Shown here piece after piece: positions 25,960 to 56,405 of a stretch of DNA of 64,000 bases. The stretch's first letter is position 1. Every line of letters starts with the position of its first letter. Origin of the DNA: Candidatus Sungiibacteriota bacterium (GTDB taxonomy: Bacteria > Patescibacteriota > Minisyncoccia > Sungbacterales > JACQCQ01); contig JACQCQ010000009.1 in assembly GCA_016201505.1 (NCBI GenBank), forward strand, positions 65,991 through 129,990, read 5' to 3'. The translations under genes were made by a program, and so were the position numbers. Below the pieces are notes generated by a model. The model was not told the origin of the DNA and made no database searches. It saw nothing but the letters and a program-made list of their open reading frames with translations.

Positions 25960-26397
25960 ATGAATGAGTTGCCGCATAAAAAAACCTGGCACCGCACGCA
26001 CCGTGAATCGCTGACCCTGGCCCAGCGCATTTCAGACGGACTGGCGAACGGCATGGGTTCCTGGACGTTCATTATTGTCCAGACTATCATTGTGATCTGC
26101 TGGATGATTTTAAATCTGGTCGCTTATATGCAGCATTGGGATCCCTATCCGTTTATACTGCTCAATCTTTTATTTTCAACCCAGGCGGCCTATGCCGCGC
26201 CGATAATTATGATGTCGCAAAACCGGCAAAACGACCGCGATCGCCATCAGGCCGAAGCCGATTATGAGACGAATACAAAAGCCAAGCTTGAAATCGAAGA
26301 TTTACAGAAAAACTTGGCGCGCATCGAGCAAGTAAAACTCGACAGGATCATTGCTCTCTTAGAAAAAGACGAGAGAAATGAAGCTCCACGGGCGTAA
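25960..26397 (+). CDS. DUF1003-family membrane protein
   Basis: PYPFILLNLLFSTQAAYAAPIIMMSQNRQNDRDR...DYETNTKAKLEIE. Terminator hairpin ccacgggc-gtaa-gcccgtgg overlaps the stop. Confidence 0.8.
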   Translation: MNELPHKKTWHRTHRESLTLAQRISDGLANGMGSWTFIIVQTIIVICWMILNLVAYMQHWDPYPFILLNLLFSTQAAYAAPIIMMSQNRQNDRDRHQAEADYETNTKAKLEIEDLQKNLARIEQVKLDRIIALLEKDERNEAPRA

Positions 26398-26554
26398 GCC
26401 CGTGGCATCTCGTATTTCGCCGCAGGCGGACTCATGCGAGATCTGCGGAATCCGCCAAAGCATCGGCTCTCAACTCACCATTAGGCTTTCAGTTACTCTT
26501 TTCGCATTCATTCACCGGCTTACGCAGGTGGTCTTTTGCGACGGCGGATAAGGT

Positions 26555-36104: not shown

Positions 36105-36110
36105 GGGTCC

Positions 36111-37740: not shown

Positions 37741-37775
37741 AATGTGACGTGGACCCCGGAAGGAGTAGAGTTCCT

Positions 37776-38393
37776 ATGAGACAAACTCTGTCGCCGGCGA
37801 TTTTCTTAGCCGCCGCCGTACTTCTGACGTCGGCTCCTACGGCCGTTGCGCAATCAGAGGCGCCCCCACCCAATGTGAAAGTTGTCCCATCTCCCAGTCC
37901 AAATCCGGGGAGTTGGTGGCTTCTGGAAACCCCAAGTGGGAGCCTCAAGATCGAGCTTTTGTCGGTTGACGCGAGTAAGTTCGTAGCACGAGTAGGAGAA
38001 CGGCAGGTTCCCTATACTAGGGAATGGAACATGCTGGTGGGCGTCGGAAGAACTGGCGCACCAGTGGACTACAATCCTCACTTGCGTTCGCTTTCCTTTC
38101 CTCTGTGGGAGGGAAAGCGCTGGGGCGGAGTCGTCTGGTGGACAGCTGGACCCGAAAGCGGTTCGTTCTCTGTCAACGCGCAGGCGAAGAAGTGGGAGCG
38201 GATTGGGGTCTTGGCAGGGACGTTCGAAGCGCTGCGTGTCGAGACCACTACTTCAGGGGCACAGCTCAATTTCTGGCTGAAATGCTGGTACGTGCCTGAA
38301 GTTCAGCGCTTCATCAAGTGCGATTCCAACAACGCCAGGTTGCAGTTCGAGCTCTCGCAATACGGCCTTGTTGGTTCAACCGCAAGTCAGTAA
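37776..38393 (+). CDS. Secreted hypothetical protein (GC-richer segment)
   Basis: MRQTLSPAIFLAAAVLLTSAPTAVAQS signal peptide. The ORF track starts earlier, at 37647. Confidence 0.5.
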   Translation: MRQTLSPAIFLAAAVLLTSAPTAVAQSEAPPPNVKVVPSPSPNPGSWWLLETPSGSLKIELLSVDASKFVARVGERQVPYTREWNMLVGVGRTGAPVDYNPHLRSLSFPLWEGKRWGGVVWWTAGPESGSFSVNAQAKKWERIGVLAGTFEALRVETTTSGAQLNFWLKCWYVPEVQRFIKCDSNNARLQFELSQYGLVGSTASQ

Positions 38394-38458
38394 GTCAGGG
38401 AACCATTGATGTAAAGACCAACGGTCCGAGGCATAACCTTGGACTGTTTTATTTGATC

Positions 38459-39463
38459 CTAACTAAAGACAGTGTACATTTTTAATATGCCCGCACCTAC
38501 TCTCATTAAGAGAGAGTCGGGAACGAGATGGAGCGTATTCTCTACGTCATTTTTGGTTGATCGCGTTGGCTTAGCGACGAAATCGTGAATTCCGTTTGAA
38601 CAAAGTTTGAATGCCACGAGACAGCCGCCATGTATCCTGGTCGTTTTGTAGTAATAATCGGAGGGATTTAATATCTCGGCGAGTTTCGGGTCATACAGTA
38701 ACGCGCCCAAGCTGTAAAAAATTAATCCATCCCTATACCTTTCAATTAGCTGCATTCCGTGCGGCTGATGTCCGACGACAATATTCGCTCCATAATCAAT
38801 TGCTAGTCGGTAATACATTTTTTGATGTTCGTCAGGGAAGAAAGAAAATCCCGCATAAACGTTTCCGACTGTGTGCAGCGCGACAATGACAATGTCAGAC
38901 GATACTCTCGCTCGTTTTATCGCACCGGAGAGGTGCTCCTTTGTTAACGACGCTACGCCGCTTTTTCCTTGTGCTGGATGCATATTCTCGTCCAGCAGGT
39001 CGGTCTGTGCTAAAAAAGACACCCGAAGATTTTGAAGGTTAACTACCTTCGGCATGAAAGCCTCATAGTTATCTTCTCCTATTCAGATGAAGTCAATTTT
39101 TTCGGTTTTTAACAAATTAAGGCATTCCTCGAGTGCAGTTCTGCCATAGTCAAAACTATGGTTATTCGCAAAAGATAAAATATAACGGCGATCCCCCCTG
39201 AACAAACTAAAAATCGCTGGGTCAGATCGAAAAAGAAACTCCTGGTTCCCGTTTCTTCTTGGCTGGCCGCCACGGGAAATGACGCCCTCGTAATTAAGAA
39301 ATATTACGTCACTTTTTTCTATGGTGTCTCGAAACTTTCCCCATATAGAATTGTGATCAATCTTGGACACCCCCCTACTAGTTTCCGTATTAAAAATCAA
39401 ATCACCGCCGACTAGAACGGTTCCTTGATATTGACATGCCGTATGTTGAAATATCTGCATCAT
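38459..39463 (-). pseudogene. CapA/PGA_cap-family metallophosphatase homologue interrupted by one in-frame TGA
   Basis: LVGGDLIF...SFANNHSFDYG...KIDFI-TGA-IGEDNYEAFMPKV...VIVALHTVGNVY...IVVGHQPHGMQ. The two ORFs 39083-39463 and 38459-39055 are in the same frame. The stop is at 39083-39085. Confidence 0.6.
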
Positions 39464-39465
39464 TG

Positions 39466-39885
39466 TTATATGGGACGTGGCCGATACCTAGTAAGGTATA
39501 GAACATCAGTTATTTTCCACGCGCCATCTTTACCACGATGGTAATGAACCCGATACATATTGCTTGCCCTCGTATCATTCTGCTGTATTATCTCGAAGAT
39601 TCCTTGCACCGTAGCTTCATCCTCGCTCGCCCGTATTACCGCATTATCCATTTTTGCCGTCTTTAAATTTGAAAGGGTGTTGCTTAAAATTACACTATAC
39701 TCTTCGGTGCCAACCCTTTTATTAACAGTGAGAGAATCTACGAACGCGCCTTCTTCGAAACTCGCTATTATATGTCCAATATCTCTCCGGTTGTAGGCTT
39801 CCAAAAAGTCGGTCATCAGATTCGCGATTTCTTTCTCCCGAAGTGTCGCAGGCTTTTTGTAAAATCTAATAAGTTTTTCTAACAT
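39466..39885 (-). CDS. NTF2/SnoaL-like fold protein
   Basis: 139 aa. EAYNRRDIGHIIASFEEGAFVD pattern, with a conserved His/Asp-rich C-terminal half. Confidence 0.5.
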   Translation of the reverse strand: MLEKLIRFYKKPATLREKEIANLMTDFLEAYNRRDIGHIIASFEEGAFVDSLTVNKRVGTEEYSVILSNTLSNLKTAKMDNAVIRASEDEATVQGIFEIIQQNDTRASNMYRVHYHRGKDGAWKITDVLYLTRYRPRPI

Positions 39886-39974
39886 TTGGGTAATCTTTCA
39901 ACAAAAACCTCGCCAGCTTGATGCGCGGCGTAAGCATAATTTACATTAAAGAATGAAGTCTCTTTAACTCTCCT

Positions 39975-41099
39975 CTATTTATATTTCACTAGCTCGCTAG
40001 TAACTAGCTCCTTTTCCAAATAAAGGCTAACCCAGCTATCGCCTGTTTTAGCCGCATTCTCGAGAGCTGCTTGAGCCTTTTTCTTCTCGCCGGTCTCAAA
40101 ATAAGCAAGGGCTAAAACTCTCCAAGGGGACGCGAAGGCTTTAAGCATCGTCGGATCGCGAGGCCATCCCTCTGCTGGTTCATTAAGATCGTGATCTATT
40201 GGTATCACGTTGTTTTCAAGTTGGCTGATAGCTTCTTTATATTGTTTTAATGCTGTCAGATACATACTAGCCGACGTATTTGCTAGAATCCGTGCGGCAG
40301 GGTGCAGCTTCTGAAAACCCAGACTATTTATTACATCCATCCATTTCTTGAGCAATCTTTGTGTTATATCAGGATTAATCTTAGCTCCTCTAATATTGAT
40401 GGTATCGTTTTCTGATGACAGTGCCTCGTTCCACTTTGCAAGAGTATTTTTTATGTCAGTATCGTCCATGATACTAAGCCGTGCCGGGTATGGTTTCGAG
40501 TGATCTGGTCCCACGATCAGAGATCTTATTTGCGCTGAAGGGGTTACTACGAGACCCATAACCGGATGTGGGAAAAACCGGCCTGACGGTATGAGGTAGT
40601 TACTACCCAGACTTGTTTGATGGACAATAATTTGCTTTTGACTTTCCAGAGATCCAACGATAACTCCATAATATCCACCACCTGGTCTCAGGGACGGGCT
40701 ACCATTCATAATAGAGACAATAATTGGCGTACTCGAAGATTGATTCAAGAAATTGCGAAGACCCCTTTGATTCTGTAGTGTAACAATTTTAGCTTCATAT
40801 CCCTGACTTTCAAAGAATCTTTTGAAATCGGTGAATGTAAAATTTCCCCTAGTCGTTTCAGCGGGCAAGGTTCTTTTGAGATCTAAAAATGATAGCCTTT
40901 TATCGCCCCAATATCGGAGTATCATCGCCGCCGTCGACTCAACATCATACGCTAGCGGCGTTCCGGAGAAAGTGCCGAAATAAGGAACACCGAGAATAAT
41001 ATTATCAATGGCGCGGGTGGATAATGAATAATAGAAAACACCTAAAACTACCAGCCCAATCAGTAGAGCAATTGAGGTGAGTTTCGTCCTGCGCGTCAT
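39975..41099 (-). CDS. Membrane-anchored peptidase-C39-like (apparently inactive) plus TPR-like domain protein
   Basis: N-terminal TM. C39-like core (…AAMILRYWG…PIIVSIMNG…GGYYGVIVG) lacks the catalytic Cys/His. C-terminal helical repeats. Confidence 0.55.
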   Translation of the reverse strand: MTRRTKLTSIALLIGLVVLGVFYYSLSTRAIDNIILGVPYFGTFSGTPLAYDVESTAAMILRYWGDKRLSFLDLKRTLPAETTRGNFTFTDFKRFFESQGYEAKIVTLQNQRGLRNFLNQSSSTPIIVSIMNGSPSLRPGGGYYGVIVGSLESQKQIIVHQTSLGSNYLIPSGRFFPHPVMGLVVTPSAQIRSLIVGPDHSKPYPARLSIMDDTDIKNTLAKWNEALSSENDTINIRGAKINPDITQRLLKKWMDVINSLGFQKLHPAARILANTSASMYLTALKQYKEAISQLENNVIPIDHDLNEPAEGWPRDPTMLKAFASPWRVLALAYFETGEKKKAQAALENAAKTGDSWVSLYLEKELVTSELVKYK

Positions 41100-41120
41100 A
41101 GAAGTTTATACTTAAGTATT

Positions 41121-41375
41121 TTAGAAAACGGTACAGCAATCGTTACCACAGCCAGAGCCAGTAGAACCCTCAGAGCCAGTAGAACCCTCAGAGCCAGTAG
41201 AGCCGCCGGGGTCAACATAAACATCCGCCGAAGCATGATTGGTTAAGGAGTTACCGAGAGCAAGTTCTTCACCACCTTGTTTTTTGCCGCTAAAAATATT
41301 TTGACCAACAGAAATCAAAGCTAGGGCAATTGCGAACAAAACCAGCTTTGAAATGTTTCTGAGAAAGTGGGACAT
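41121..41375 (-). CDS. Small protein with signal/TM segment, (GSTGSE)n tandem repeat and C-terminal Cys-rich tail; candidate RiPP precursor
   Basis: MSHFLRNISKLVLFAIALALISVG...GSTGSEGSTGSEGSTGSGCGNDCCTVF-stop. Directly downstream of the YcaO gene on the same strand. Confidence 0.55.
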   Translation of the reverse strand: MSHFLRNISKLVLFAIALALISVGQNIFSGKKQGGEELALGNSLTNHASADVYVDPGGSTGSEGSTGSEGSTGSGCGNDCCTVF

Positions 41376-41447
41376 CTTTGTCCATAGTATAGCAAAAATA
41401 ATTTCTGACAATCAAGCTATATTCACAATCAGTTTTGGTTACTGTTA

Positions 41448-43016
41448 CTATGGAAAAGGGTGCGGAAAAGTGTTGAATTTTCTCTTAATCTGATAGCCCA
41501 GTTTTGGCAGGACTGTTCTAAGTCTCGAGGCTCCCAAGGGTGCAAAAGTTTCGTTAAGGTATAATGGGACTAATTCAGGCACCACAACCTGAGTTACATT
41601 ATAACCCAATTCATGGTTTAAGAAATAATCGCGAACCTCAAATCCGTAAACTTCGTAGCCTATTCCCAACGACTCGACCCTTTTGACCAAGAAGTTTAAT
41701 TCATCACGAGTTGTCGCAAAGCTTCTTGGAAAATCAAAGCGGACTTTTTGAATATCCTGGGCATGTCCTTCAAGGAAAAAAGCAATGTGTTCGCGCATCT
41801 TTGGGTTAGCCCAAAGATGCAAACGTTCTTCTTGACCTAATGAAGGGTCACCAAACGGCCTATAATTATCAGCTAACTCATATACGGGATGACTGTCTTT
41901 CTTAGATCGGAGACTATAATAAACTCCCCAAGCTTCTTCATATGCCTTTGTCGCCGCGATTTCTGGATTTGCGTGACAGCCACCCCCCATTGATAAGTAG
42001 GGCCCCACCCAGGATTCATCTAGAATGATCGCAACAAAACTGGGCGGGCCTATGTCGAGTGTTGTGTTTAATATGTGACACTTGAATCTGCATCTTTGCA
42101 CTTGGAGTATTGAACTCCTCAAATCTTTGTTGAGAGACGAAATATCAATTTGTGGCGGAGAGATTCTATTAAGCCAGAAAATGAGAAAGGCATCTCTTTC
42201 AATAAGTTCATATAAACCCGCCAGCATTGCCCCCTCTCGATTAAACATCCCCCCGCTACCATTTGTATTTGGCTCTCTAAGAAATACTTCTGGTATGTCC
42301 CCGCTGATGTAGTTCCAAAAGATTAGCTGTGCGGGCAGCATGGTTTTTTGTCCTGTAGACACTCGAACACCTTGAACCCAGTGAAGTCTATGCTCTGGGG
42401 TCCAAGCAAAACGATTTGATTGATTTTGCTGTTCCTCCGAGAAACTCACCAACTTCTTAGGATCTAAAGCCCGGGCTCTTCTGTTCAAATCTACATAAGA
42501 ATTCGTCACAAAATTTTTTCTACTGTACTTAGTCAAATAATATCGCTCCAAAAATTCCCCGATACTTTTACTAACCATACTAATTAAGTCTTGACCGGAG
42601 CTATGTCCGAATGTACGAACAATTTTTCTCCCATCAGTATTATATGTATCATCAATGGATGGAGTTATATCAATCCGACTGAATGCTGGAGAGTCGTTAA
42701 AACGGCGGTGGTCTATGAATACGTCTTTGACAAGTCCACGCTCCTTTAATTTTCTAATAATTTTTATAAACGGACGTAGGGATTCCTCATATTTATTGAG
42801 GATTGCATAGGAAGTCCTTTCAGAAATTTTATCAAGGTCTTTATACAACCTTGATAATATCCTCTTCTCGAAAGAATTGCTCTCCAGATCGTAGAAACTT
42901 GCTGTCAAAGAATTCTGTCCCGGCCCCCCTGCATCGAAATATTCGGACATTAATACAAGCCCATCATAATCAAGCGGCTGGTAGAGACTGAAGTCTTGTT
43001 CTTTTGGTGTGCTCAC
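41448..43016 (-). CDS. YcaO-domain protein (ATP-dependent cyclodehydratase/amide-activating family)
   Basis: TNGSGGMFNREGAMLAGLYELIERDAFLIFWLNRISPPQID is the signature YcaO ATP-binding region. 522 aa with an approximately 170-aa N-terminal extension. Confidence 0.85.
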   Translation of the reverse strand: MSTPKEQDFSLYQPLDYDGLVLMSEYFDAGGPGQNSLTASFYDLESNSFEKRILSRLYKDLDKISERTSYAILNKYEESLRPFIKIIRKLKERGLVKDVFIDHRRFNDSPAFSRIDITPSIDDTYNTDGRKIVRTFGHSSGQDLISMVSKSIGEFLERYYLTKYSRKNFVTNSYVDLNRRARALDPKKLVSFSEEQQNQSNRFAWTPEHRLHWVQGVRVSTGQKTMLPAQLIFWNYISGDIPEVFLREPNTNGSGGMFNREGAMLAGLYELIERDAFLIFWLNRISPPQIDISSLNKDLRSSILQVQRCRFKCHILNTTLDIGPPSFVAIILDESWVGPYLSMGGGCHANPEIAATKAYEEAWGVYYSLRSKKDSHPVYELADNYRPFGDPSLGQEERLHLWANPKMREHIAFFLEGHAQDIQKVRFDFPRSFATTRDELNFLVKRVESLGIGYEVYGFEVRDYFLNHELGYNVTQVVVPELVPLYLNETFAPLGASRLRTVLPKLGYQIKRKFNTFPHPFP

Positions 43017-43067
43017 AAGAATATCTAAAATAGTATCGCTATTACCTTACTCTAGATATACGAAGAG

Positions 43068-43121
43068 GGGCAAATTTTGTTTAGGGGACAGATTTCGCAC
43101 TTGGGAGAGCGGGCGAGGCAG
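43068..43121. repeat. Decayed copy of the nth 3' terminus (remnant C1)
   Basis: The reverse complement reads CLARSPKCEICPLNKICP. It is homologous to nth codons at 46824-46887. Confidence 0.8.
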
Positions 43122-43187
43122 ATAGCTCAAGACTGGCGAGAGTCCCAGTGGCTTGAATGTATACTAATAATATTCTAATCTGGTGTC

Positions 43188-43427
43188 ATGACGCAAAAAG
43201 TATTGAAAGTTGGCTCTTCGGCGGCGGTGACGATTCCCAAAAAGTCTTTAAAAGAACTGGGGCTTAAAATCGGCGATGAGGTTCAGGTGGATGTGGATCA
43301 GCGGAGGAAGTTGGTTTCAATTACTCCTGCCCAAAATCTCTCCAAGGAAGACTCTAAAATTGCAAAATTGACACTTGCATTCATCGAGAGATACCGAAAA
43401 GACTTAGAATCGCTCGCCGATAAATAA
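43188..43427 (+). CDS. AbrB/SpoVT-fold antitoxin partnered with Doc
   Basis: MTQKVLKVGSSAAVTIPKKSLKELGLKIGDEV. Confidence 0.7.
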   Translation: MTQKVLKVGSSAAVTIPKKSLKELGLKIGDEVQVDVDQRRKLVSITPAQNLSKEDSKIAKLTLAFIERYRKDLESLADK

Positions 43428-43817
43428 GTGAAGTATTTACGATACTCACAGATTTTTCTGATTCATTCAATGATGATTGATGAAACAGGTGGCAGTCACG
43501 GCGTGAGAGATTCTCATGCAATTTTAAGTTTGGAACATTCTCCGAGGCAAAAAGTATTTGGGAAAACACTCTATCCTTCAGTGTACCAAAAGGCCGCGGT
43601 GTATGCGCGAGCTATCATTATGGAGCATCCATTTATTGACGGAAATAAGCGGACCGGCATTTCAGCAGCCAGTATTTTTTTGGAGAATAATGGTTACCAA
43701 CTCATTGCCAAAGAGGGCGAACTTGAGTCGTTTGCATTGCGAATTGTGGATCAAAAATATGGAATAGCAGAAATTGCCGGCTGGTTTCGCAAGAACTCAA
43801 GGAGAAATAAAAAATAA
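43428..43817 (+). CDS. doc: Doc (death-on-curing) Fic-family toxin
   Basis: Fic motif HPFIDGNKRTGISAASIFL. Confidence 0.85.
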   Translation: MKYLRYSQIFLIHSMMIDETGGSHGVRDSHAILSLEHSPRQKVFGKTLYPSVYQKAAVYARAIIMEHPFIDGNKRTGISAASIFLENNGYQLIAKEGELESFALRIVDQKYGIAEIAGWFRKNSRRNKK

Positions 43818-43838
43818 ATTTTATCCCAGGCGAGTAGT

Positions 43839-43870
43839 TTATTCTCATATTCTTGAGAATATGAGAATAA
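43839..43870. repeat. AT-rich perfect palindrome P (variant) at a cassette boundary
   Basis: ttattctcatattct-tg-agaatatgagaataa. Related to 45304-45339 and 45969-45998. Confidence 0.6.
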
Positions 43871-43911
43871 CGCTATGCTTGGTAAGCTTTTAGAACTAGA
43901 TTCTCGAAGAG

Positions 43912-43965
43912 GGGCAAGTTTTGTTTAGGGGACAGATTTCGCACCTGGGAGAGCGGGTGGTGCGG
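43912..43965. repeat. Decayed copy of the nth 3' terminus (remnant C2)
   Basis: gggcaagttttgtttaggggacagatttcgcacctgggagagcggg. Confidence 0.8.
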
Positions 43966-44041
43966 CTGAACATGTTGGCGCAATAAAGGGCGAGAGTCCC
44001 AGCGGCTTGAATGTATACTAATAATATACTAATCTTTACAC

Positions 44042-44149
44042 ATGACGCAAAAAGTATTGAAAGTCGGCTCTTCGGCGGCCGTTACGATTTCCAAAAAATC
44101 TTTGAAAGAGCTCGGTCTTAAAATCGGCGCAATATTAACATATGATTGA
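44042..44149 (+). pseudogene. Truncated copy (35 codons) of the Doc-partner antitoxin gene
   Basis: First 31 codons are identical to 44667-44897, then it diverges to a stop. Confidence 0.5.
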
Positions 44150-44160
44150 CTCATATTATT

Positions 44161-44385
44161 ATGAAAAGCATCATACAATTTCATATTCATAGGGGTGAAA
44201 CCCACTATATTGCGGAGGGAGTTGATTTACCGGTCGTAACTCAAGGGAAAACCCTAGATGAGCTCGCCGCGAATCTCAAAGAGGCGGTTGCCTTGCAACT
44301 CGAAGGAGAGAACCCGGCTGATTTTGGTCTGACGTCGAGTCCTTCTGTTTTGGCAAATTTCGAACTTTCCGAGATTCGTGCCTAA
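44161..44385 (+). CDS. hicB: HicB antitoxin
   Basis: YIAEGVDLPVVTQGKTLDELAANLKEAVALQLEG. Confidence 0.8.
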   Translation: MKSIIQFHIHRGETHYIAEGVDLPVVTQGKTLDELAANLKEAVALQLEGENPADFGLTSSPSVLANFELSEIRA

Positions 44386-44623
44386 ATTGAGAATTCTTTC
44401 AGGGCACGATGTTGTTGCGATCTTAGAAGGCCTCGGTTTTTCTGTGGTTGCCCAAAAAGGCAGTCATGTAAAATTGCGCAGAACTGTTGAGGGTGGAACA
44501 AAGCAGAGCCTCACAATCCCGCTACATGCCGAGATGGATAAATGGACGCTCAAAGCGATTTACACGCAAGCTTCTCGGTATATTCCCGAAACTGAATTGC
44601 GAGAGCACTTCTATACCAAGTAG
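44378..44623 (+). CDS. hicA: HicA toxin
   Basis: ILEGLGFSVVAQKGSHVKLRRTVEGGTKQSLTIPLHAEM. Confidence 0.85.
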   Translation: MPKLRILSGHDVVAILEGLGFSVVAQKGSHVKLRRTVEGGTKQSLTIPLHAEMDKWTLKAIYTQASRYIPETELREHFYTK

Positions 44624-44666
44624 GTGCGTAGGAGTTTAGATTATATTAATTTCATCTGTACACGTT

Positions 44667-44897
44667 ATGACACAAAAAGTATTGAAAGTCGGCTCTTCGG
44701 CGGCCGTTACGATTTCCAAAAAATCTTTGAAAGAGCTCGGTCTTAAAATCGGGGATGAGGTGCGAGTGAACATTAATCACAAAGAAAAGCTTGTGATTAT
44801 TGAGCCGGCGCATCAAGTGAAAAAGGAATTGCTTGATTGGACGGAGCAGTTTATTAAAACCTACCGGCCGGCCTTGCTCGCGCTCGCGAAAAAATGA
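44667..44897 (+). CDS. AbrB/SpoVT-fold antitoxin (second copy)
   Basis: Paralogue of 43188-43427. Confidence 0.7.
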   Translation: MTQKVLKVGSSAAVTISKKSLKELGLKIGDEVRVNINHKEKLVIIEPAHQVKKELLDWTEQFIKTYRPALLALAKK

Positions 44898-45286
44898 CCC
44901 GATATCTGGATCCCGAGGAGATGCTCGTGATTCACGCGAAGATTATAGACGAAACGGGTGGACTCCACGGCGTACGAGATATGAACCTATTCGCCTCGAT
45001 TGCCGGGCGGCCGAAAATGCAGTTTGGCGGGAAAGAATTATATCCCTCGGTATTTGAAAAAGCAGCGGCATATTTTGAGTCTACTGCCTTTCATCATGTC
45101 TTTGTGGATGGAAACAAACGAACGGCAATCGCCATAGCTGCTCGTTTTCTTTTTCTCAATGGATACGACCTAACAACCTCAAATAAAGTTCTGGAGAGGT
45201 TTGTGCTTGGTACAGTCACGAAGAAATCTAATTTAAAAATCATCGCATTGTGGTTTCAAAAACATTCAAAGAAAATCAGAAAGTAG
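44894..45286 (+). CDS. doc: Doc toxin (second copy)
   Basis: HHVFVDGNKRTAIAIAARFL. Confidence 0.85.
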   Translation: MTRYLDPEEMLVIHAKIIDETGGLHGVRDMNLFASIAGRPKMQFGGKELYPSVFEKAAAYFESTAFHHVFVDGNKRTAIAIAARFLFLNGYDLTTSNKVLERFVLGTVTKKSNLKIIALWFQKHSKKIRK

Positions 45287-45303
45287 TTTTATGAGGCCGG
45301 ACG

Positions 45304-45339
45304 GTTTATTCTCAAGTTCTTAAGAACTTGAGAATAAAC
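45304..45339. repeat. 36-bp perfect palindrome P
   Basis: gtttattctcaagttctt|aagaacttgagaataaac. Confidence 0.6.
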
Positions 45340-45361
45340 ATTCTTCTAGACATGGGATGAA

Positions 45362-45427
45362 GGGCAAATTTTGTTTAGCGGGCAGATGAGGCATTGGGGG
45401 GAGCGGGCGCGGCAGACGGCGCGGCCC
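45362..45427. repeat. Decayed copy of the nth 3' terminus (remnant C3)
   Basis: gggcaaattttgtttagcgggcagat...gggggagcgggcgcggcagacggcgcggccc. Confidence 0.8.
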
Positions 45428-45697
45428 GTCGCTACATTTGACGATACACGGAGTGGTCTCCCACTGAATGGAACCATGCAGTATTTTTCTTGATAAATTC
45501 AAAAATGATTCGATGGCGTGTATCGATAGAGAACGCCTAGAAATCTTTAAGACGTCCGTGCAATTTATGAGTGCCCGGTCTGGGGTCAAATTGGTTTTTG
45601 CGGAATATACACTCTTTTTCTTCTGCTACTTTTTTAACGGACAGCGCGAGGGTTTTATATTCTCGCCTGAATTTCGAGGAATAGAAGATTCGCATTA

Positions 45698-45910
45698 GCG
45701 CAGGTCTCTCAACGAACGAAGTAACTTACCCTTGCCCCGTTTTAGCTCATCCCGGCTTTCTCCAAGCCCTTCGGCCAACTTTCCTTCAAGCCAAAGACGA
45801 ACGAGCGTTCAGAAGAATTCGCTTTTTGTCGAGAATTGGTTTTGCTTTAATTGTTTCTCAACCTCAGCCGCCATTTCGCGGGGTAGTGAGATATTAATGA
45901 CGCTCCGCAT
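45698..45910 (-). pseudogene. Ribbon-helix-helix (CopG/ParD-like) antitoxin homologue with an in-frame TGA at codon 34
   Basis: MRSVINISLPREMAAEVEKQLKQNQFSTKSEFF-TGA-TLVRLWLEGKLAEGLGESRDELKRGKGKLL. The stop is at 45809-45811. Confidence 0.5.
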
Positions 45911-45968
45911 AAGATGTGTAATACTTTATTTTACAAGACTATCTTCTTTGATTTCTCCATCAATAACT

Positions 45969-45998
45969 TATTCTCAAGTTCTTAAGAACTTGAGAATA
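45969..45998. repeat. 30-bp perfect palindrome P
   Basis: tattctcaagttctt|aagaacttgagaata. Confidence 0.6.
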
Positions 45999-46023
45999 GG
46001 CTCTTTGGCTGAACCCTACGAGA

Positions 46024-49535: not shown

Positions 49536-49640
49536 GCCGGCGCGTTTTCATCCACCGTCACAGCAGACCTCGAGCATCAGCCCGAGGCTTGGTGCAAACC
49601 ATAGACAGATGTACCCTCGACAGGGTTGAAGTCTAGATGC

Positions 49641-49740
49641 TGTGGCGGATTCCGCTGATCTCGCAAGAGTTTCCGCCTTCGGCGGAAACTGCGAGATACC
49701 ACGGCCGCGTCAGACGCGGCCGTGGAGCTTCATTTGACTT
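49641..49740 (+). ncRNA. Conserved two-hairpin RNA motif (copy A) in the 5' leader of the abrB-like/efflux operon
   Basis: TGGCGGATTCCGC, then hairpin ATCTCGCAAGAGTT..UUCG..TGCGAGAT, then hairpin CACGGCCGCG-TCAGA-CGCGGCCGTG, then AGCTTCA. Confidence 0.45.
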
Positions 49741-49796
49741 ATTTTTTCCGCCGCGTACACTAAAATCATACTTTTCATACTTTTTTAAGAAGCCTT

Positions 49797-50045
49797 ATGA
49801 AACCCAAACCCTTCGGTCAGCATACATTGTACGGCTCAACCACGGTCGGCGCTCGGGGCCAAGTCGTCATTCCGATTAAGGCGCGGCGCGATCTTAAATT
49901 AAAAGCCGGCGAAGAGATGCTCGTCGCTGGCGCGCATGGGCGCTTCTTAATGATCATGAAGATCTCGGAGATGAAGGGCATTATGGAGGAGCTTGCCGAA
50001 CGCATCTCGGAATTTAAAAAACTCGCCTCGACTGCAAAAAAATAA
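49797..50045 (+). CDS. AbrB/MazE (SpoVT-AbrB) family small DNA-binding protein
   Basis: GQVVIPIKARRDLKLKAGEEMLV swapped-hairpin motif. Confidence 0.65.
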   Translation: MKPKPFGQHTLYGSTTVGARGQVVIPIKARRDLKLKAGEEMLVAGAHGRFLMIMKISEMKGIMEELAERISEFKKLASTAKK

Positions 50046-50048
50046 CCT

Positions 50049-51575
50049 ATGGTTTTGAAATTGAGTCTTAAAACGTGGCTTTGGATTTTGGGCGCTGCCG
50101 TCATTCTCGGCGGTGGATATTTCGTGTTCCATAAATCCGCGCCGAAGACCGAACTGGTAAAAGCCAAAATGCGCGACGTGGTGGATGTGGTTACCGTAAC
50201 AGGATCCATCGAGCCGGCAACCAGCATCAATTTAGAATTTCTTTCAAGCGGCAAGGTGGTCTATCGGCCGGTGTGGGTAGGGTCTCAAGTTTCCGCCAGC
50301 CAGGTTCTGATGAGCCTGGATGGGCGCGACATCAATTTGCAAATTCAAAAAGCCGAAGCGGTGCAGGAAGGCAATCAAGCGAAACTCGATCAATTAAAAG
50401 CCGGAGCGACATCGGGGACTGTTGCCCAGCTGGAGAATGCACTGGCCGCAAGTTACGAGGAGGCGTTGGTTGCGCTGGATACGGCGCTCACCAAAGCCGA
50501 CAAGGCATTCACCATACTGCGCAGCGACGTGTATACGCAAACCAACACGGTGCGTACGGATTTTCAACTGCAGTTGGATTCAAGCGTGGCCAAAGCCCAA
50601 AACGATAAAAATGCCGCTGATGCGGCGGAGGCAGACGTGCGGTCTATGCGTGACGTGGCAGCGGTTAGCATTGCGGGGCCAAATCCATCCGGGAATTTGA
50701 ATGTCGATCTCTTCTTTCAAAAGGCGCCGGCGGAATTAAATGCGGTGAGCCAGTCGCTCGTCAGTTCGGTCGCATTGTTACGAGCCGTTATCTCGCCGAC
50801 CGTGAGCCAGTCAACCGTTAGCGGATATTTAACCGATATCGCCGGTGTTCAAAGCGAACTGAATACGGCCATGACCTCGCTCACGGATGCGGTTGCCGCC
50901 ATCCAGTCAGCCAAAGACGCGTTGCGGGTAAAAATTGAGCCGCCGCGCGCGGTAGATCTCGCAGTTTTGGAAGCTAACGTCAATTCTGCCACGGCCGATG
51001 TGGCTATCCTCAAGGAACAAAAAAGTGATTTAAGTTTGGTCGCTCCGGTTGGGGGAACGGTCACCGCGCTTAATTATGAAATCGGCGAAATTGCGCGTCC
51101 CAGCATAACGGCGGTCTCATTAATTTCGCGAGGTGGATTTGAAGTCGAGGCCAATGTCCCAGAAGTTGATATTGCCAAAGTCGCGCTTGCTGATCGCGTC
51201 AAAATTACGTTCGATTCATTGCCCGGGGAGACGTTCGATGGAAAAGTCACGCACATCGATCCAGCCGAAACCGTGGTCTCGGGGGTAACCAACTACAAGA
51301 TTAAAGTCGCGCTTGAAATAAAAGACAACCGCATTAAAAGCGGCGGGACGGCAAATCTCGCCATCGAGACCTTGCGAAAACCGCATGTCTTGACACTGCC
51401 GCAGTTTGGCATTATCGAGCGTGATGACGGCACGTTCGTCCATAAAATAGTCAACGGCAAAGAAGAGGAGGTCAAAATTACGACCGGCATTCGCAGTTCG
51501 GACGGGTATGTTGAAATTCTTTCGGGATTGCAAGAAGGCGAAGCGGTCGTGAATGTCGGAGTGAAAACGCATTAG
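50049..51575 (+). CDS. Periplasmic adaptor (HlyD/membrane-fusion) protein of an ABC efflux system
   Basis: N-terminal TM, long coiled-coil, beta-barrel C-terminus. Precedes MacB-like ABC genes. Confidence 0.8.
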   Translation: MVLKLSLKTWLWILGAAVILGGGYFVFHKSAPKTELVKAKMRDVVDVVTVTGSIEPATSINLEFLSSGKVVYRPVWVGSQVSASQVLMSLDGRDINLQIQKAEAVQEGNQAKLDQLKAGATSGTVAQLENALAASYEEALVALDTALTKADKAFTILRSDVYTQTNTVRTDFQLQLDSSVAKAQNDKNAADAAEADVRSMRDVAAVSIAGPNPSGNLNVDLFFQKAPAELNAVSQSLVSSVALLRAVISPTVSQSTVSGYLTDIAGVQSELNTAMTSLTDAVAAIQSAKDALRVKIEPPRAVDLAVLEANVNSATADVAILKEQKSDLSLVAPVGGTVTALNYEIGEIARPSITAVSLISRGGFEVEANVPEVDIAKVALADRVKITFDSLPGETFDGKVTHIDPAETVVSGVTNYKIKVALEIKDNRIKSGGTANLAIETLRKPHVLTLPQFGIIERDDGTFVHKIVNGKEEEVKITTGIRSSDGYVEILSGLQEGEAVVNVGVKTH

Positions 51576-51579
51576 CGTT

Positions 51580-51700
51580 AATTTCTAGATCCTAATTTCT
51601 AAATCCGAAACAAATGCCAACGCACAAAATCCCAAATTTAGAACTTTTGAATTTAGAATTTGTTTAGAGTTTAGGATTTCGTGCTTAGGATTTTGAACCT
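51580..51700. repeat. Approximately 115-bp AT-rich intergenic repeat (copy 1; copy 2 at 59318-59430)
   Basis: tcctaatttctaaatccgaaacaaat ... ttttgaatttgtttagagtttaggatttcgtgcttag is shared almost verbatim. Confidence 0.6.
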
Positions 51701-52417
51701 GTGATTTCCGTAAAAAATCTGGCAAAAGAATATCTCGTCGATGAAACAGCGACCAAAGCGCTTCGCGGTATCTCATTTGATATCGATGAAGGCGAGTTTG
51801 TGGCCGTCATGGGGCCATCAGGTTCGGGGAAATCGACTCTACTCCATATTTTGAGTTTTTTGGATCGTCCCACGGTAGGTTCGTATACATTCTTGGGAAA
51901 AAGTATTCAGGATTTAAGCGATCAAGAATTGGCCCACATTCGAAATCAAGAAATGGGATTTATCTTTCAGGCTTTTAACTTGCTTTCGCGCTCGTCCGTC
52001 TATCAAAATGTCGAAATTCCCTTGCTCTATTCAGATCTGCCGGTACGAGAGCGGAGACCACGCATTTTGAGCGCTGTGGCGTCAGTCGGACTTTCCGAAA
52101 AGTTAGGGACTGAAGCCGGCAGACTTTCAGGCGGTCAAAAACAGCGGGTGGCCATTGCCCGGGCGCTGGTTAATGAACCGGCCATCGTGTTCGCCGATGA
52201 GCCGACGGGTAATCTCGATTCAGAATCGGGCGGCGAGGTCATGGAAATTTTTGAAAAGCTGCATAATCAAGGCCGCACGATTGTGCTGGTTACGCATGAG
52301 ACCTACACCTCCGAATTTGCGCGTCGACTCATTCGATTAAAAGACGGCTTGATTGAAGTTGACGAGCCGATTGTGAAGCGGCATCGGCACCTTAACGGCG
52401 AAAAACTATTTAAATAA
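51701..52417 (+). CDS. ABC transporter ATP-binding protein (MacB/LolD-like)
   Basis: GPSGSGKSTLLHIL, LSGGQKQRVAIARAL, IVFADEPTGNLD. Confidence 0.9.
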   Translation: MISVKNLAKEYLVDETATKALRGISFDIDEGEFVAVMGPSGSGKSTLLHILSFLDRPTVGSYTFLGKSIQDLSDQELAHIRNQEMGFIFQAFNLLSRSSVYQNVEIPLLYSDLPVRERRPRILSAVASVGLSEKLGTEAGRLSGGQKQRVAIARALVNEPAIVFADEPTGNLDSESGGEVMEIFEKLHNQGRTIVLVTHETYTSEFARRLIRLKDGLIEVDEPIVKRHRHLNGEKLFK

Positions 52418-52433
52418 ACTTCTGAAAAAATAC

Positions 52434-52538
52434 ATCCCGTTAGAAGCCGCGATCGCGAAAGACGGAATACATATGAAAATTATAATTAAAATGATTTTAC
52501 AGCAAACGCGTTTGATCGCGATCTGCTTCTAACGGGAT
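52434..52538. repeat. MITE-like element with ATCCCGTTAGAAGC / GCTTCTAACGGGAT TIRs between the ABC ATPase and permease genes
   Basis: Perfect 14-bp TIRs. The permease ATG lies in the right TIR (ctaacgggATGaaa). Confidence 0.6.
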
Positions 52539-53784
52539 GAAATTTCAAGATGTGGCCAAAACTTCAGTCGAAGCCTTAAAACGAAATAAAACCCGCTCGA
52601 TATTGACGATGCTCGGCATTATCATCGGCATTGCCTCGGTTATTCTTTTAATGTCGCTCGGCCAATCGGCGCAGAATTTAATTTTAAACCAAGTCCAAGG
52701 GACCGGCTCAAATTTAATTTTCGTCATACCCGGGGGGACCGACAAAGGCTCGCGCTTTTCTTCTCCGGCATCTGTTCAGGGAATTGTCATCAAGACATTG
52801 ATCCAAGATGATTTAGATGCGTTAAAACGCGAGCCGACCATTGCCAAGGCCTCGGCCGAAGTAAGGGGTCAGGCCAAAATCGTCTACCAAAATAATGACT
52901 CAACGGTAACGTTCGATGGGACGAACGCCGATTTTTTCAGCATCCGTAATTTTACGATTGCGCGCGGCGCGGCATTCACCGATTCTGATCTCAACTCGTT
53001 CAATCGCGTCGCGGTTCTCGGGTCTGAAATTTCAAAAACTTTATTCGGCGAGCTCGATCCGATCGGCAAAACAATTCGACTGAAAGACGTTTCGTTTCGC
53101 GTGGTCGGCGTCTTAGACGCCAAGGGCTTAGGCCCGTTCGGCATCGATCAGGACAATTTAGTCTTGGTTCCGATCACGGTTGCGCAAAGACAGATGCTCG
53201 GGATTAATTATTTTAATGTGATTACGGTCGAGGCCTCGGACGCCTACACCATTGATTTTACCAAAGCGCGGATTATTTCCGTTTTGCGCCAGGATCATCG
53301 GATTACCGATCCCCACAAAGATGACTTTACCATCCGTACCCAGGAAGATGCGCTCGCACTCCTTGGCAACATTACTTCGATTATGAAATTATTTTTGATT
53401 TCAATCGCCTGCATTTCTTTAATTGTCGGCGGCATCGGCATTATGAACATCATGCTGGTCTCCGTCGTTGAGCGAACGCGCGAAATCGGCCTGCGGAAAG
53501 CCGTTGGGGCTACAAATAATGACATCCTGCAGCAATTTTTATTTGAAGCCGTCATGCTGACGTTTGCCGGCGGCGTTATCGGCATTGTCATCGGTTCGGG
53601 ACTTTCGGTGCTGGCGTATGTTGTGTTATCGAAACTCGTCTCGACCGGCTGGACGCTTTCACTCCCCATTTCCGCCGTCATTCTTGCGGCGGGCGTTTCT
53701 TCTCTGATCGGACTTGTCTTCGGCATTTATCCGGCGCGAAAAGCGGCCATCGCCAACCCCATTGATTCGCTGCGGTATGAGTAG
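52537..53784 (+). CDS. ABC transporter permease (MacB/FtsX-like)
   Basis: N-terminal TM, large periplasmic domain, C-terminal 3 TMs with FtsX motifs. Confidence 0.9.
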   Translation: MKFQDVAKTSVEALKRNKTRSILTMLGIIIGIASVILLMSLGQSAQNLILNQVQGTGSNLIFVIPGGTDKGSRFSSPASVQGIVIKTLIQDDLDALKREPTIAKASAEVRGQAKIVYQNNDSTVTFDGTNADFFSIRNFTIARGAAFTDSDLNSFNRVAVLGSEISKTLFGELDPIGKTIRLKDVSFRVVGVLDAKGLGPFGIDQDNLVLVPITVAQRQMLGINYFNVITVEASDAYTIDFTKARIISVLRQDHRITDPHKDDFTIRTQEDALALLGNITSIMKLFLISIACISLIVGGIGIMNIMLVSVVERTREIGLRKAVGATNNDILQQFLFEAVMLTFAGGVIGIVIGSGLSVLAYVVLSKLVSTGWTLSLPISAVILAAGVSSLIGLVFGIYPARKAAIANPIDSLRYE

Positions 53785-54076
53785 CGGGCATTCGGCTTTT
53801 ATTTTTTGCAAACGGCGATTTTCCCACCGAGAAAATCACTTTCCCAATCTCCTCGCTCGTCCTGCCACGGCTTAGGACACCATGGTCGCTCGTCGATTGA
53901 GGATTTCAAAAAATAATAGTCTCATTTTTGTCTTTCTGAATGCAGGCCGTTGGCCTTTTTTAAATAAAGAACCCAGCCCTGTTCACTATGATCTTCCTCC
54001 TGCGTTGAAAACGCGTCTTTTTGCTGGTATTCTGTTAAGACGTTAAACGCGCAAAAATTTCAAGTCGAGTATTTCG

Positions 54077-54147
54077 GGGCCTATGGTATAGCGGCAACAC
54101 AACTCCATGGCATGGAGTAGTCCCGGGTCCGATTCCCGGTAGGTCCA
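54077..54147 (+). tRNA. tRNA-Ala (GGC)
   Basis: G3:U70 wobble in the acceptor. Anticodon stem ACTCC/GGAGT with loop ATGGCAT. T arm CCGGG...CCCGG. Discriminator A. D-arm pairing is imperfect, so it needs tRNAscan confirmation. Confidence 0.55.
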
Positions 54148-54354
54148 CTGCTTCGCCTTCGGGCTACGCAGTGCAAGCACTGTTAGCACAAGAAAGGCCT
54201 ATCAAAAGAGATGAGATCAAAATCAAGAAGCAGTGTCCTGCGTAGCTCGGAGAGCGAAGCAGGGCAAGCACTGTTAGCACAAGAAAGGCCTATCAAAAGA
54301 GATGAGATCAAAATCAAGAAGCAGTGTCCTGCGTAGCTCGGAGAGCGAAGCGGG
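54148..54354. repeat. 2 x 91-bp tandem direct repeat, each unit closed by an inverted-repeat arm, immediately 3' of tRNA-Ala
   Basis: The units 54173-54263 and 54264-54354 differ at 1 position. Arm ctgcttcgccttcgggctacgcag (54148-54171) is the complement of ctgcgtagctcggagagcgaagc at each unit end. Confidence 0.8.
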
Positions 54355-54362
54355 GCAACGAT

Positions 54363-54602
54363 ATGTATTTCACCTATATTCTTCGGAGTGATAAAGATGG
54401 AAGCTGTTATACTGGCATAACGGATAATTTGAAACGGCGTATAGCTGAGCACAATTCGGGCAATGTAACTTATACATCAAGTAAGAGCCCTTTTAGGCTT
54501 GTATGGTTTTGCGGATTCCCGACTAAGAAAAAAGCTTTAGAGTTTGAGCTATATCTGAAGTCGCATTCTGGGATTGCGTTTAGGAATAAGAGGTTGATTT
54601 AG
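54363..54602 (+). CDS. GIY-YIG nuclease-domain small protein
   Basis: MYFTYILRSDKDGSCYTGITDNLKRRIAEHNSG. Confidence 0.8.
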   Translation: MYFTYILRSDKDGSCYTGITDNLKRRIAEHNSGNVTYTSSKSPFRLVWFCGFPTKKKALEFELYLKSHSGIAFRNKRLI

Positions 54603-54778
54603 ATTGTAAAAAGTTTGATTCTCATCGGGATATAAAAAGAACTCCCTCGAACCTCCACCGGTGAAGATGGAGATCCGAGAGGTAACGCATGTTGCCTAAC
54701 GTCCAGATAAGGTCCACCAAATGAAAAAAGTTAACCGTGAGACAAAAAATTGAGGGCTCTTTTGCAAAAGAGCCCCGG

Positions 54779-55039
54779 TTAGGAGGAGGACGGTACTGCT
54801 CCCGGTCCTTTGAAGATGGCAATGGTTGAGCCGTCTGGCTCAATCCGGATATATCCGGCGGCCGCCATTTCATGGAGCACCTGACGGAAGGGCCGATCCG
54901 CAGAAAAAAAGAGATCGAGTCCGAGCCCACGCATTCTCGTCAAGGTATCGGCCAGAAGCTCGTTCGGACTCCGCTTCCGATCATCAGCCGCCACGACATC
55001 GAGCATGATGGAAACAACTCGATCCTCGGTTGTTATCAT
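54779..55039 (-). CDS. Hypothetical protein (GC-richer)
   Basis: 86 aa from the Met at 55039. No family recognised. Confidence 0.35.
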   Translation of the reverse strand: MITTEDRVVSIMLDVVAADDRKRSPNELLADTLTRMRGLGLDLFFSADRPFRQVLHEMAAAGYIRIEPDGSTIAIFKGPGAVPSSS

Positions 55040-55184
55040 GGCAACACCTCCTGTAACTCCAGTATAGTCGCATCGGCCCGATAAGTTTTCCACCCACCCT
55101 TTCTCGCGCGAAACCTTTGACGAATGGGCACAGTTATAGTAGACAAAGGGAGTCAGCCAATCCTTTAAATGGAACATTTCGCAC

Positions 55185-55808
55185 ATGTCTTTGGATCAAA
55201 ATGACTCTCAGCTTGGTTTCTACGACGAAGGACAAGATGGACTAAAAGACGAGGTTCTGCTCCACGCTTCCGCGGACGACCCTCGTCTTTTTGAGGTTAT
55301 CGTCCGCCGCTATCAGGAGCCGTTTTTACGAGCCGCGACCCGCATTGTGCGCCGGCGTGAAGATGCCGAAGACATCGTCCAGGAAGCCTTTTTAAAAATT
55401 TATAGAAATGCGGGAAAATTCGTAAAACAGGAAAATATCGAATTTAAAAGTTGGGCCTACAAGGTTGTGTTAAATACCGCCTTCACGCATTATCAACGGC
55501 TAAAAAAACGCGGGATTTCCGAAGAGTCAGACGAAGCACTGCTCACGGTTGGAAAAGATGAGCACATAGAGGACGCGCTTCATACCAAGATGTTGCTCGA
55601 GCGCGTTATGGCTGATCTCCCCGAAGATCTGGCCCACGTTTTGCGCCAACACTACATAGCCGATAAAGCCTATGAGACCATTGCGGGCGAAGAAAGAACG
55701 ACGATCGCCTCAATTAAAATGAGGCTCTATCGAGCGCGCAAGGCCTTTAAGAAACTTTCAGACGATAAGCCGAGTTCCATAGAAAAGAAGCCTAATCACA
55801 CTTATTGA
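55185..55808 (+). CDS. ECF-type RNA polymerase sigma factor
   Basis: Region 2 EDAEDIVQEAFLKIYRN and region 4 TIASIKMRLYRARKAFKK. Confidence 0.85.
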   Translation: MSLDQNDSQLGFYDEGQDGLKDEVLLHASADDPRLFEVIVRRYQEPFLRAATRIVRRREDAEDIVQEAFLKIYRNAGKFVKQENIEFKSWAYKVVLNTAFTHYQRLKKRGISEESDEALLTVGKDEHIEDALHTKMLLERVMADLPEDLAHVLRQHYIADKAYETIAGEERTTIASIKMRLYRARKAFKKLSDDKPSSIEKKPNHTY

Positions 55809-55809
55809 T

Positions 55810-56166
55810 ATGCAAATTAGCGTGCCACATGACCATTTAACCAAGCGGATCATGCGCCGGGTCTTTGCCACCTGGTTTATTCGGCGGATACTGCCGCCGC
55901 TCGTTTTAGAGTTTGGCGCCCTGGGGCTCGTGCTTGCCGGAATTCATGAATATATTTCCATTCGGTTTGTGATGCGGAACGCCGTTCACGCCATTCACGG
56001 CGTTCCGTCTCTAATTATGTTCTCCGAGAGCGCCCTGGCACACACGGCTTTTGTGCCGCGCCTGCTGATGGCGGCGTCAATTATGCTCGCCATACTTCTT
56101 ATTCGGGATCTGCGGCGCATTGTGTCGCGGCCCATGGCACGAGCTCGCGGCTTTGTATCGGTCTAA
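55810..56166 (+). CDS. Membrane protein, candidate anti-sigma factor
   Basis: Starts 2 nt after the sigma gene. Has 2-3 TMs. Confidence 0.45.
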   Translation: MQISVPHDHLTKRIMRRVFATWFIRRILPPLVLEFGALGLVLAGIHEYISIRFVMRNAVHAIHGVPSLIMFSESALAHTAFVPRLLMAASIMLAILLIRDLRRIVSRPMARARGFVSV

Positions 56167-56199
56167 TTTTTTTCAAAAGAAAAGTTCGACGACGAAAAA

Positions 56200-56228
56200 C
56201 GCCACTCAGCCTGAGTGGCGTTTTTTTC
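56200..56228 (+). terminator. Rho-independent terminator
   Basis: cgccactcag-cc-tgagtggcg followed by ttttttt. Confidence 0.8.
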
Positions 56229-56317
56229 TTCCGCCGCCGCCAGAGATTAAGTTTATAGGAATAAGTCATACCAGAAAGAGAATAACCGGGATGGGGTAGA
56301 AATTCGATGTGTGTGCT

Positions 56318-56405
56318 TTGGCGGATTCCGCAGTATCTTGCAAGAGTTCACCTTCGGTGAAATGCAAGATATTCACGGCCTCTGGCCATGAAGCTCCAAT
56401 TTCTG
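56318..56405 (+). ncRNA. Conserved two-hairpin RNA motif (copy B) in the 5' leader of the PPC/DUF296 gene
   Basis: TGGCGGATTCCGC, then ATCTTGCAAGAGTT-cacc-UUCG-ggtg-TGCAAGAT, then CACGGCC-TCTG-GCCATGA, then AGCTCCA. Base pairs are compensatory relative to copy A. Confidence 0.45.

Follow-up and report, generated by a model that had tools for sequence, protein, structure and literature searches.

The repeat unit and its copies

The 64-kb stretch of a Candidatus Sungbacteria metagenome-assembled genome (MAG) analyzed here, referred to hereafter as the window, contains three copies, named A, B and C, of a gene-less repeat unit whose organization follows that of the mobile element IS608. Two of them, located on the plus strand 59-63 nt (copy A) and 26 nt (copy B) upstream of the same-strand start codons of an AbrB-like/HlyD/MacAB efflux operon and of a PPC/DUF296 gene, respectively, had been described in the original prediction as a structured RNA motif occurring twice and serving as a leader for these genes. 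Both sequences are homologous, occur at the predicted places and share the 13-mer TGGCGGATTCCGC; their homology goes far beyond chance, since a profile built exclusively from copies outside the window recovers copies A and B at E = 6e-20 and 2e-13, respectively. The number of two was too low: an exact search with the 13-mer disclosed a third copy, C, on the minus strand at 26378-26547 (13-mer at 26445-26457), between the convergent genes 26555-27388(-) and 25960-26397(+). The features of the three copies are listed below, the guides and cleavage motifs being named after their counterparts in IS608.

49552..49733, + strand: copy A, whole element of 182 nt, with boundaries taken from the 11-copy comparison
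49548-49551, + strand: target tetranucleotide TCAT of copy A; the element starts at the next base
49552-49563, + strand: left linker of copy A, 12 nt, CCACCGTCACAG
49564-49567, + strand: left guide position of copy A, CAGA
49568-49587, + strand: left subterminal hairpin of copy A, CCTCGAGC-ATCA-GCCCGAGG
49636..49655, + strand: conserved core of copy A, GATGCTGTGGCGGATTCCGC, made of the 5' strand of helix P1 and the small P2 hairpin GGCGG-ATT-CCGC
49643-49655 and 56319-56331, + strand: 13-mer TGGCGGATTCCGC in copies A and B
49658..49697, + strand: long hairpin P3 of copy A, the "first hairpin" of the original prediction
49695..49733, + strand: right end of copy A, whole
49695-49698, + strand: right guide GATA of copy A
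49699-49725, + strand: right subterminal hairpin of copy A, the formerly described "second hairpin", followed by the spacer AGCT
49730-49733, + strand: right cleavage motif TCAT of copy A, last bases of the element
49734-49761, + strand: sigma-70-like promoter TTGACT-16-TACACT in the 3' flank of copy A, outside the element
49797, + strand: ATG start of the AbrB-like gene, downstream of the promoter-like site
56231..56399, + strand: copy B, whole element of 169 nt, degenerate
56319-56331 and 56335-56370, + strand: core P2 and P3 of copy B, both intact
26378..26547, - strand: copy C, whole element of 170 nt, the best-preserved copy of the window
26551-26548, 26547-26536 and 26535-26532, - strand: target TTAT, linker and guide AAGA of copy C
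26531-26512, 26457-26445 and 26442-26407, - strand: left hairpin, P2 and P3 of copy C
26409-26406, 26405-26386 and 26381-26378, - strand: guide GATG, right hairpin and TCAT of copy C

The alignment, together with their flanks, of 11 distinct copies, comprising A, B, C and eight copies found elsewhere, shows that conservation reaches about 90 nt further 5' than the stretch originally described, and stops abruptly on both sides. The whole unit measures 169-182 nt, in addition to two insertion-bearing variants of 221 and 253 nt. The stretches first recognized are thus real, but they represent only the right-hand 90-100 nt of the unit. No conserved open reading frame (ORF) occurs within these 169-253 nt, as indels between copies break every reading frame, and a small ORF in the ATG-containing core was ruled out for the same reason.

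A covariance model of the right-hand domain, run with filters off over the whole window, retrieved copies A, B and C and nothing else. Extending the search beyond the window, as proposed along with the original prediction, did yield more copies: eight further distinct ones, D-K, were recovered from MAGs of the Candidate Phyla Radiation (CPR) and from metagenomes. A first loose pattern, applied to species-representative genomes, essentially gave chance matches (about 115 of 117 loci, among the matches listed), from which copies D and E, picked by profile search, stand out as true homologues residing in one MAG labelled Saccharibacteria (CAZBTX01). Copies F-K result from a stricter pattern applied to Joint Genome Institute (JGI) metagenomes of groundwater origin, which returned 12 stretches, six of them distinct. 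Since the search patterns required the core, its invariance in the eight external copies holds by construction, and only A, B and C are unbiased in this respect. The features of the left end and of the tips, i.e., the lack of terminal inverted repeats (TIRs) and of target-site duplications (TSDs), the TTAY motif, the pair of hairpins, the guides, the AT dinucleotide and the boundaries of copies G and H, were absent from these patterns.

The 11 distinct copies all have different neighbour genes. Copies G and H are identical except for two insertions, occupy different loci, and diverge exactly after TTAC on the left and after TCAC on the right, which fixes the boundaries of the element and indicates recent copying. 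No copy was found in a related lineage with the same synteny of ABC-transporter and 277-aa genes; three scans of viral contigs gave chance matches only, and BLAST searches against plasmids and phages nothing relevant.

Some copies deserve a separate mention. In copy H (locus L122, 2118-2370), insertions of 82 nt and of 17 nt, the latter palindromic, occupy the interval from the left cleavage site to the guide and the loop of the right hairpin, respectively. Copy J (locus L126, 1579-1799) exhibits an additional hairpin after the left palindrome. Nested insertions have thus been tolerated or accumulated by the element. A single element family occurs both in the Saccharibacteria-labelled MAG CAZBTX01 (loci L028 and L081) and in the Candidatus Sungbacteria MAG, a distribution which suggests either horizontal transfer between CPR classes or mis-binning.

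Ends, insertion sites and relationship with IS608

The well-preserved copy G illustrates the anatomy of the unit. From 5' to 3', a flank terminating in TTAC precedes a 12-nt linker CCGCCGTCGCAG, the tetranucleotide AAAG, and a hairpin CCACGGGC-GGAA-GCCCGTGG, followed by ATGAATGCGA, a variable region, the core GATGCTTTGGCGGATTCCGC, and P3, the 3' base of which ends with GATG. The right end is completed by another hairpin, similar to the first in its sequence family, and by AGCT and TCAC, beyond which the 3' flank begins. Both subterminal hairpins belong to a single sequence family, CCAYGGSC-GNRA-GSCCRTGG, with 16 nt separating the left one from the 5' tip and 8 nt the right one from the 3' tip.

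Comparison of the first 20 nt with the reverse complement of the last 20 nt in the 11 copies gives 4-8 matches out of 20, a random level, so that no TIRs occur. Similarly, no target duplication was detected, the longest word common to the 12-nt flanks being 2-5 nt long and restricted to T-rich low-complexity sequence. The tetranucleotide directly 5' of the element is TTAC in four copies, TTAT in four, TGAC in one (J), TCAT in one (A) and TCTT in one (the degenerate B); one tally put TTAY at 9/11 copies, the itemised per-copy list comprising the four TTAC and the four TTAT. The insertion point often coincides with the T-run of a terminator.

The left guide, located directly 5' of the left hairpin, reads AAAG, AAUG, AAAA, GAAA or AAGA, with AAAG in copies G, H and I. 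The last bases of guide and target change together, the guide having G with TTAC or TGAC (five copies) and A with TTAT or TCAT (four copies). At the other end, a right guide GAUR stands 5' of the right hairpin and the element terminates with TCAY; positions 1, 2 and 4 are pairable in a crossed manner in 10/10 intact copies, G:T being counted, according to a pairing rule seen at the left end of IS608 and extended here to the right end by analogy. An AT dinucleotide occurs 3' of the foot of the left hairpin in 7/10 copies.

These features recall the ends of IS608 (ISHp608) from Helicobacter pylori. This insertion sequence inserts 3' of TTAC, which constitutes the left cleavage site, 19 nt from the left palindrome; the guide AAAG lies directly 5' of the left palindrome, and the A and T located 3' of the palindrome form base triplets. 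The right guide is GAAT and the right cleavage site, TCAA, is located 10 nt after the right palindrome. Real IS608 DNA, fetched via its transposase, reads TTTAC/N15-AAAG/palindrome/ATAC at the left end and GAAT/palindrome/AGTATGTCAA/ at the right end, slashes separating the segments. A search for homologues of the IS608 TnpA returned Campylobacterota-type proteins only, among the best 120. The repeat thus shares with IS608 the TTAC target and left cleavage site, the AAAG guide 5' of the left hairpin, the AT 3' of this hairpin, a right guide of the GAxx type, a right end TCAx situated 8-10 nt past the right hairpin, an AG after the hairpin foot, the resemblance between the two hairpins of one element, and the lack of both TIRs and TSDs. 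It differs from IS608 in its size, about 170 nt without any tnpA or tnpB inside, compared to about 1.8 kb, in the sequence of the hairpin (CCACGGGC... instead of CCCCTAGC...), which forms a perfect palindrome in the best copies whereas that of IS608 is imperfect, and in the length of the linker (12 nt instead of 15 nt) and of the right spacer (4 nt instead of 6 nt). In addition, its inner core shows no sequence similarity to the right end of IS608. In the H. pylori control loci (L140/L141, 1-970), a serine-resolvase/MerR gene and an OrfB (TnpB) gene form a pair, read as IS607-like, beside a truncated IS608.

[quoted passage not shown] All of these would fit multi-copy, intergenic and hairpin-rich sequences, and it is true that P2 is a perfect 13-bp palindrome in copies E, J and K, and that the linker, P2 and some P3 tips all contain the words GGCGGA/TCCGCC. 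Such an assignment is nevertheless scarcely credible. A MITE should possess the TIRs and TSDs which are both lacking here; a unit of about 170 nt with four or more helices is far too long for a REP, a palindrome of 20-40 nt, and the conserved GTAG of REPs is not seen; the copies at 26, 49 and 56 kb, on mixed strands, do not form the cassette array, with R''/R' GTTRRRY boxes, associated with attC sites. As regards operators, the GGCGGA words are not conserved in the P3 tips (B, D, F, G, I and K differ), and long-range helices of variable length with compensatory changes would be unexpected.

The palindrome-associated transposable elements (PATEs) of Haloquadratum walsbyi and Geobacillus stearothermophilus offer a much closer parallel. 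Like them, the repeat is too short to encode a transposase, lacks TIRs and target duplication, and exhibits near-terminal palindromes that are related, with a greater distance to the tip on the 5' side than on the 3' side, as well as a conserved oligonucleotide at the terminus, a targeting sequence of 4-5 nt and a presumed mobilisation in trans. Every item of the published definition of PATEs is found in the element. It differs from these PATEs by its hosts, which belong to the CPR/Patescibacteria, and in that no parent IS605-type transposon with matching ends was identified.

Judging from the sequence of its copies, each copy of the repeat is quite probably a non-autonomous insertion sequence of the IS200/IS605 family, of the IS608 type, and more precisely a PATE of about 170 nt. 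The RNA motif of the original prediction is the right-hand half of this gene-less mobile element, including the core, P3 and the right hairpin, and the element is no new riboswitch but an ordinary selfish repeat. How the element is built, where it ends, how its copies are dispersed and how they match the rules of IS608 are read directly from the aligned copies. The transposase and the mechanism of mobility are proposed by analogy with IS608: a Y1 (HUH) transposase TnpA, encoded elsewhere, would bind both subterminal hairpins on the single-stranded top strand, and the tetranucleotide located 5' of each hairpin, of the AAAG type on the left and GAUR on the right, would pair with the sites of cleavage, which are TTAY in the left flank and TCAY at the right tip. 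The strand would be cut after TTAY and after TCAY, the element would leave as a circle, and this circle would re-insert 3' of another TTAY, often in the T-run of a terminator, without any target duplication.

Several observations weigh against this identification. Neither tnpA nor tnpB was detected, whether in the window or in the element-carrying loci (about 130 kb), using tblastn with the exact IS608 TnpA and a motif scan, and a Pfam search on 20 ORFs of the window similarly gave no tnpA or tnpB. No empty site and no presence/absence polymorphism was seen, the closest relatives of the window genome displaying only about 50% protein identity and look-ups with exact proteins yielding nothing but short contigs of the same strain. 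The covariation between guide and cleavage site mostly separates two subfamilies and may reflect one or two events, and that of the right end is not significant alone. The target position is aberrant in copies A and B, which have TCAT and TCTT, respectively. Finally, the conservation of the core is unexplained by TnpA recognition as known from IS608. A search for homologues of the IS608 TnpA returned Campylobacterota-type proteins only, among the best 120.

Folding, covariation and gene neighbourhood

In a 10-sequence alignment of the right-hand domain, 95.7% of the cells are paired under a model with four helices, and 8 of the 26 pairs change on both sides. The level of pairing and covariation reached by the model is attained by none of 500 shuffles, and no slid register comes close. 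The support from covariation resides in P3 and in the right hairpin, since P2 is invariant and P1 shows one double change; the left hairpin likewise contains compensated changes. For the whole right domain, folding gives a four-way junction that is closed, the z score of copy A being -8.

Much of the fold had been correctly recognized. Copies A and B both contain the first hairpin ATCTYGCA...TGCRAGAT, in which C:G is swapped for T:A, as well as the CACGGCC hairpin and the tail AGCTYCA, and their distal stems, unrelated in sequence, are complementary as claimed. Two details have to be revised: the 13-mer TGGCGGATTCCGC, thought to be conserved as a single strand, is not necessarily so, being a near-palindrome which folds as GGCGG-AUU-CCGC, and the presumed UUCG tetraloop of P3 is a UUC triloop in the folds of A and B and lacks conservation elsewhere, the other copies having AAA, CCC, GAA, UGG and others.

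The argument that covariation points to an RNA instead of a protein operator stands in part. The helices are indeed kept by compensatory changes, but single-stranded transposon ends behave likewise: because the ends of IS200/IS605 elements act as folded single-stranded DNA, covariation does not imply RNA, and it cannot separate an RNA from single-stranded DNA hairpins recognized by a Y1 transposase. In the helices of the older copies, mismatches amount to about 3 G:T versus about 4 A:C, as expected of neutral decay. An RNA transcribed from the opposite strand, a possibility prompted by the A:C mismatches, was ruled out on account of the similar G:T and A:C counts and of the GNRA and UUCG loops on the top strand. 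A likeness to hammerhead, twister-sister or T-box RNAs, assessed by eye, was dismissed as well, in the lack of their core motifs and of any Rfam match.

The proposal that the unit acts as a cis-regulatory leader RNA, riboswitch-like or attenuator, of the AbrB-like/HlyD/MacAB operon and of the PPC/DUF296 gene relies on the position of copies A and B just upstream of two same-strand genes, on the terminator-like character of the right hairpin with its T-rich flank in copies A and C, and on the compensatory changes preserving the helices; riboswitches and 5' leaders also combine several helices, a conserved core and stems that vary but are compensated. The wider set of copies makes this proposal very improbable. 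The downstream gene is convergent for copies C, F and G, and probably also for H on weaker ORF calls, and what follows copy I, close to the end of its contig, is a terminator-like hairpin. When a same-strand downstream gene exists, it is unrelated from one copy to another: the AbrB-like/efflux operon, PPC/DUF296, a DEAD-box helicase and a DNA polymerase III delta'-like protein (the latter two identified by eye) form no coherent set of gene families and no coherent regulon. The upstream gene lies on the strand of the element in 9/11 copies, and the element starts 0-9 nt after the stop codon of the upstream gene in four copies and after a terminator T-run in several. As to a bias of orientation relative to replication, with the top strand on the lagging-strand template, the GC skew of the window gives no usable signal of origin or terminus. 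Unlike riboswitches and leaders, it is bounded by transposon-type ends.

Promoter scans of three regions of the window revealed a sole sigma-70-like site, at 49734-49761, downstream of copy A. The location of this promoter-like site, between the element and the gene, argues for a position of the element outside the leader of the AbrB-like operon. A sigma-54 or sigma-70 promoter inside the core was rejected, the spacing being unsuitable and the scans giving only the site downstream of copy A. The lack of resemblance to known riboswitches, already noted in the original prediction, was confirmed: Rfam at gathering thresholds identifies seven tRNAs over the whole window, and E-value scans of four copies gave chance matches only.

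Additional observations concern the surroundings of the copies. Directly 3' of copy A, the segment 49742-49760, TTTTTTCCGCCGCGTACAC, resembles the start of the element itself (a T-run plus CCGCCGYCGCAG) and overlaps the promoter-like site; TTTTTTCCGCCGCGTACAC could be what remains of a second left end, or the match could be fortuitous. Close to copy C, the convergent 145-aa ORF 25960-26397, read by eye as DUF1003-like, runs 20 nt into the right hairpin, indicating either that the insertion altered the C-terminus of the gene or that the ORF call overruns. Elsewhere in the window, a stretch at about 32000-46000 has a G+C content of 0.42-0.45, compared to 0.48-0.52 in the rest of the window, and may represent an acquired island; two Fic/DOC-family paralogues, at 43428-43817 and 44894-45286, are located within it. 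A type IV pilus cluster, comprising a PilB-type ATPase, PilC/T2SSF and PilM, occupies 4666-8830.

The conserved core and the significance of the element

Copies A, B and C differ from one another by 20-30% in sequence, except in the core and at the base of P3, where they are identical. Profiles built from the non-window copies illustrate this unequal preservation: the left-end profile scores 37 bits for copy C, 11.8 for copy A and none for copy B, and the right-domain profile 77, 67 and 46 bits for C, A and B, respectively. In copy B, the left hairpin can no longer be recognised, a mismatch interrupts the right hairpin, and CCAA replaces TCAY at the right end. The core and P3 have remained intact in copies A and B despite their decayed left ends.

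In this respect, the right-end domain (P1-P4, about 100 nt) might, in addition to belonging to a PATE, specify a functional RNA. Such an RNA would most likely be a scaffold of the omega-RNA type on which a TnpB/IscB-like nuclease would draw in trans, the 3' flank providing the guide and TTAY the adjacent motif, or alternatively a domesticated small RNA. More specifically, the inner module (GATGCTKTGGCGGATTCCGC and P3, closed by P1) could serve as an omega-RNA-like scaffold for a nuclease encoded elsewhere, or correspond to a PATE-borne RNA co-opted by the CPR host, and a role of this kind would explain the survival of the module in A and B after decay of the transposition ends. PATEs are reported in the literature to encode often omega RNAs, used in trans by TnpB; the domain, structured over about 100 nt, reaches the right transposon boundary, carries the right hairpin close to its own 3' end, and resembles the scaffolds of TnpB/IscB omega RNAs (right-end element RNAs, reRNAs) in position and size only. 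The GNRA and UUCG-type loops on the top strand and the closed four-way junction of copy A likewise speak for an RNA. On balance, this additional function appears rather unlikely. Unlike the omega-RNA scaffolds, the domain has no nuclease gene nearby, neither TnpB nor IscB being found in the window or in the element-carrying loci (Pfam on the 20 window ORFs and the motif scan), and it matches no Rfam model. All 12 metagenome stretches with the core pattern are gene-less, PATE-sized units, none of them linked to tnpB. The mismatch counts resemble neutral decay, and the invariant P2 and nearly invariant P1 provide no pairing support.

The identification of the repeat as a PATE first removes a false riboswitch or leader-RNA candidate, and shows that single-strand transposon ends can mimic structured RNAs, including their covariation. 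The three copies of the window are to be marked as mobile-element repeats in the annotation, and neighbouring genes may be separated by an additional terminator, formed by the hairpin of copy A and its T-rich flank. We consider it quite probable that the repeat constitutes an IS608-like PATE in CPR bacteria. The occurrence of an IS608-type PATE family in the CPR/Patescibacteria implies that a Y1 transposase is, or was recently, active in these reduced genomes. If the core should correspond to a guide-RNA scaffold, the elements would additionally point to the presence, in CPR bacteria, of a nuclease guided by RNA and working in trans.

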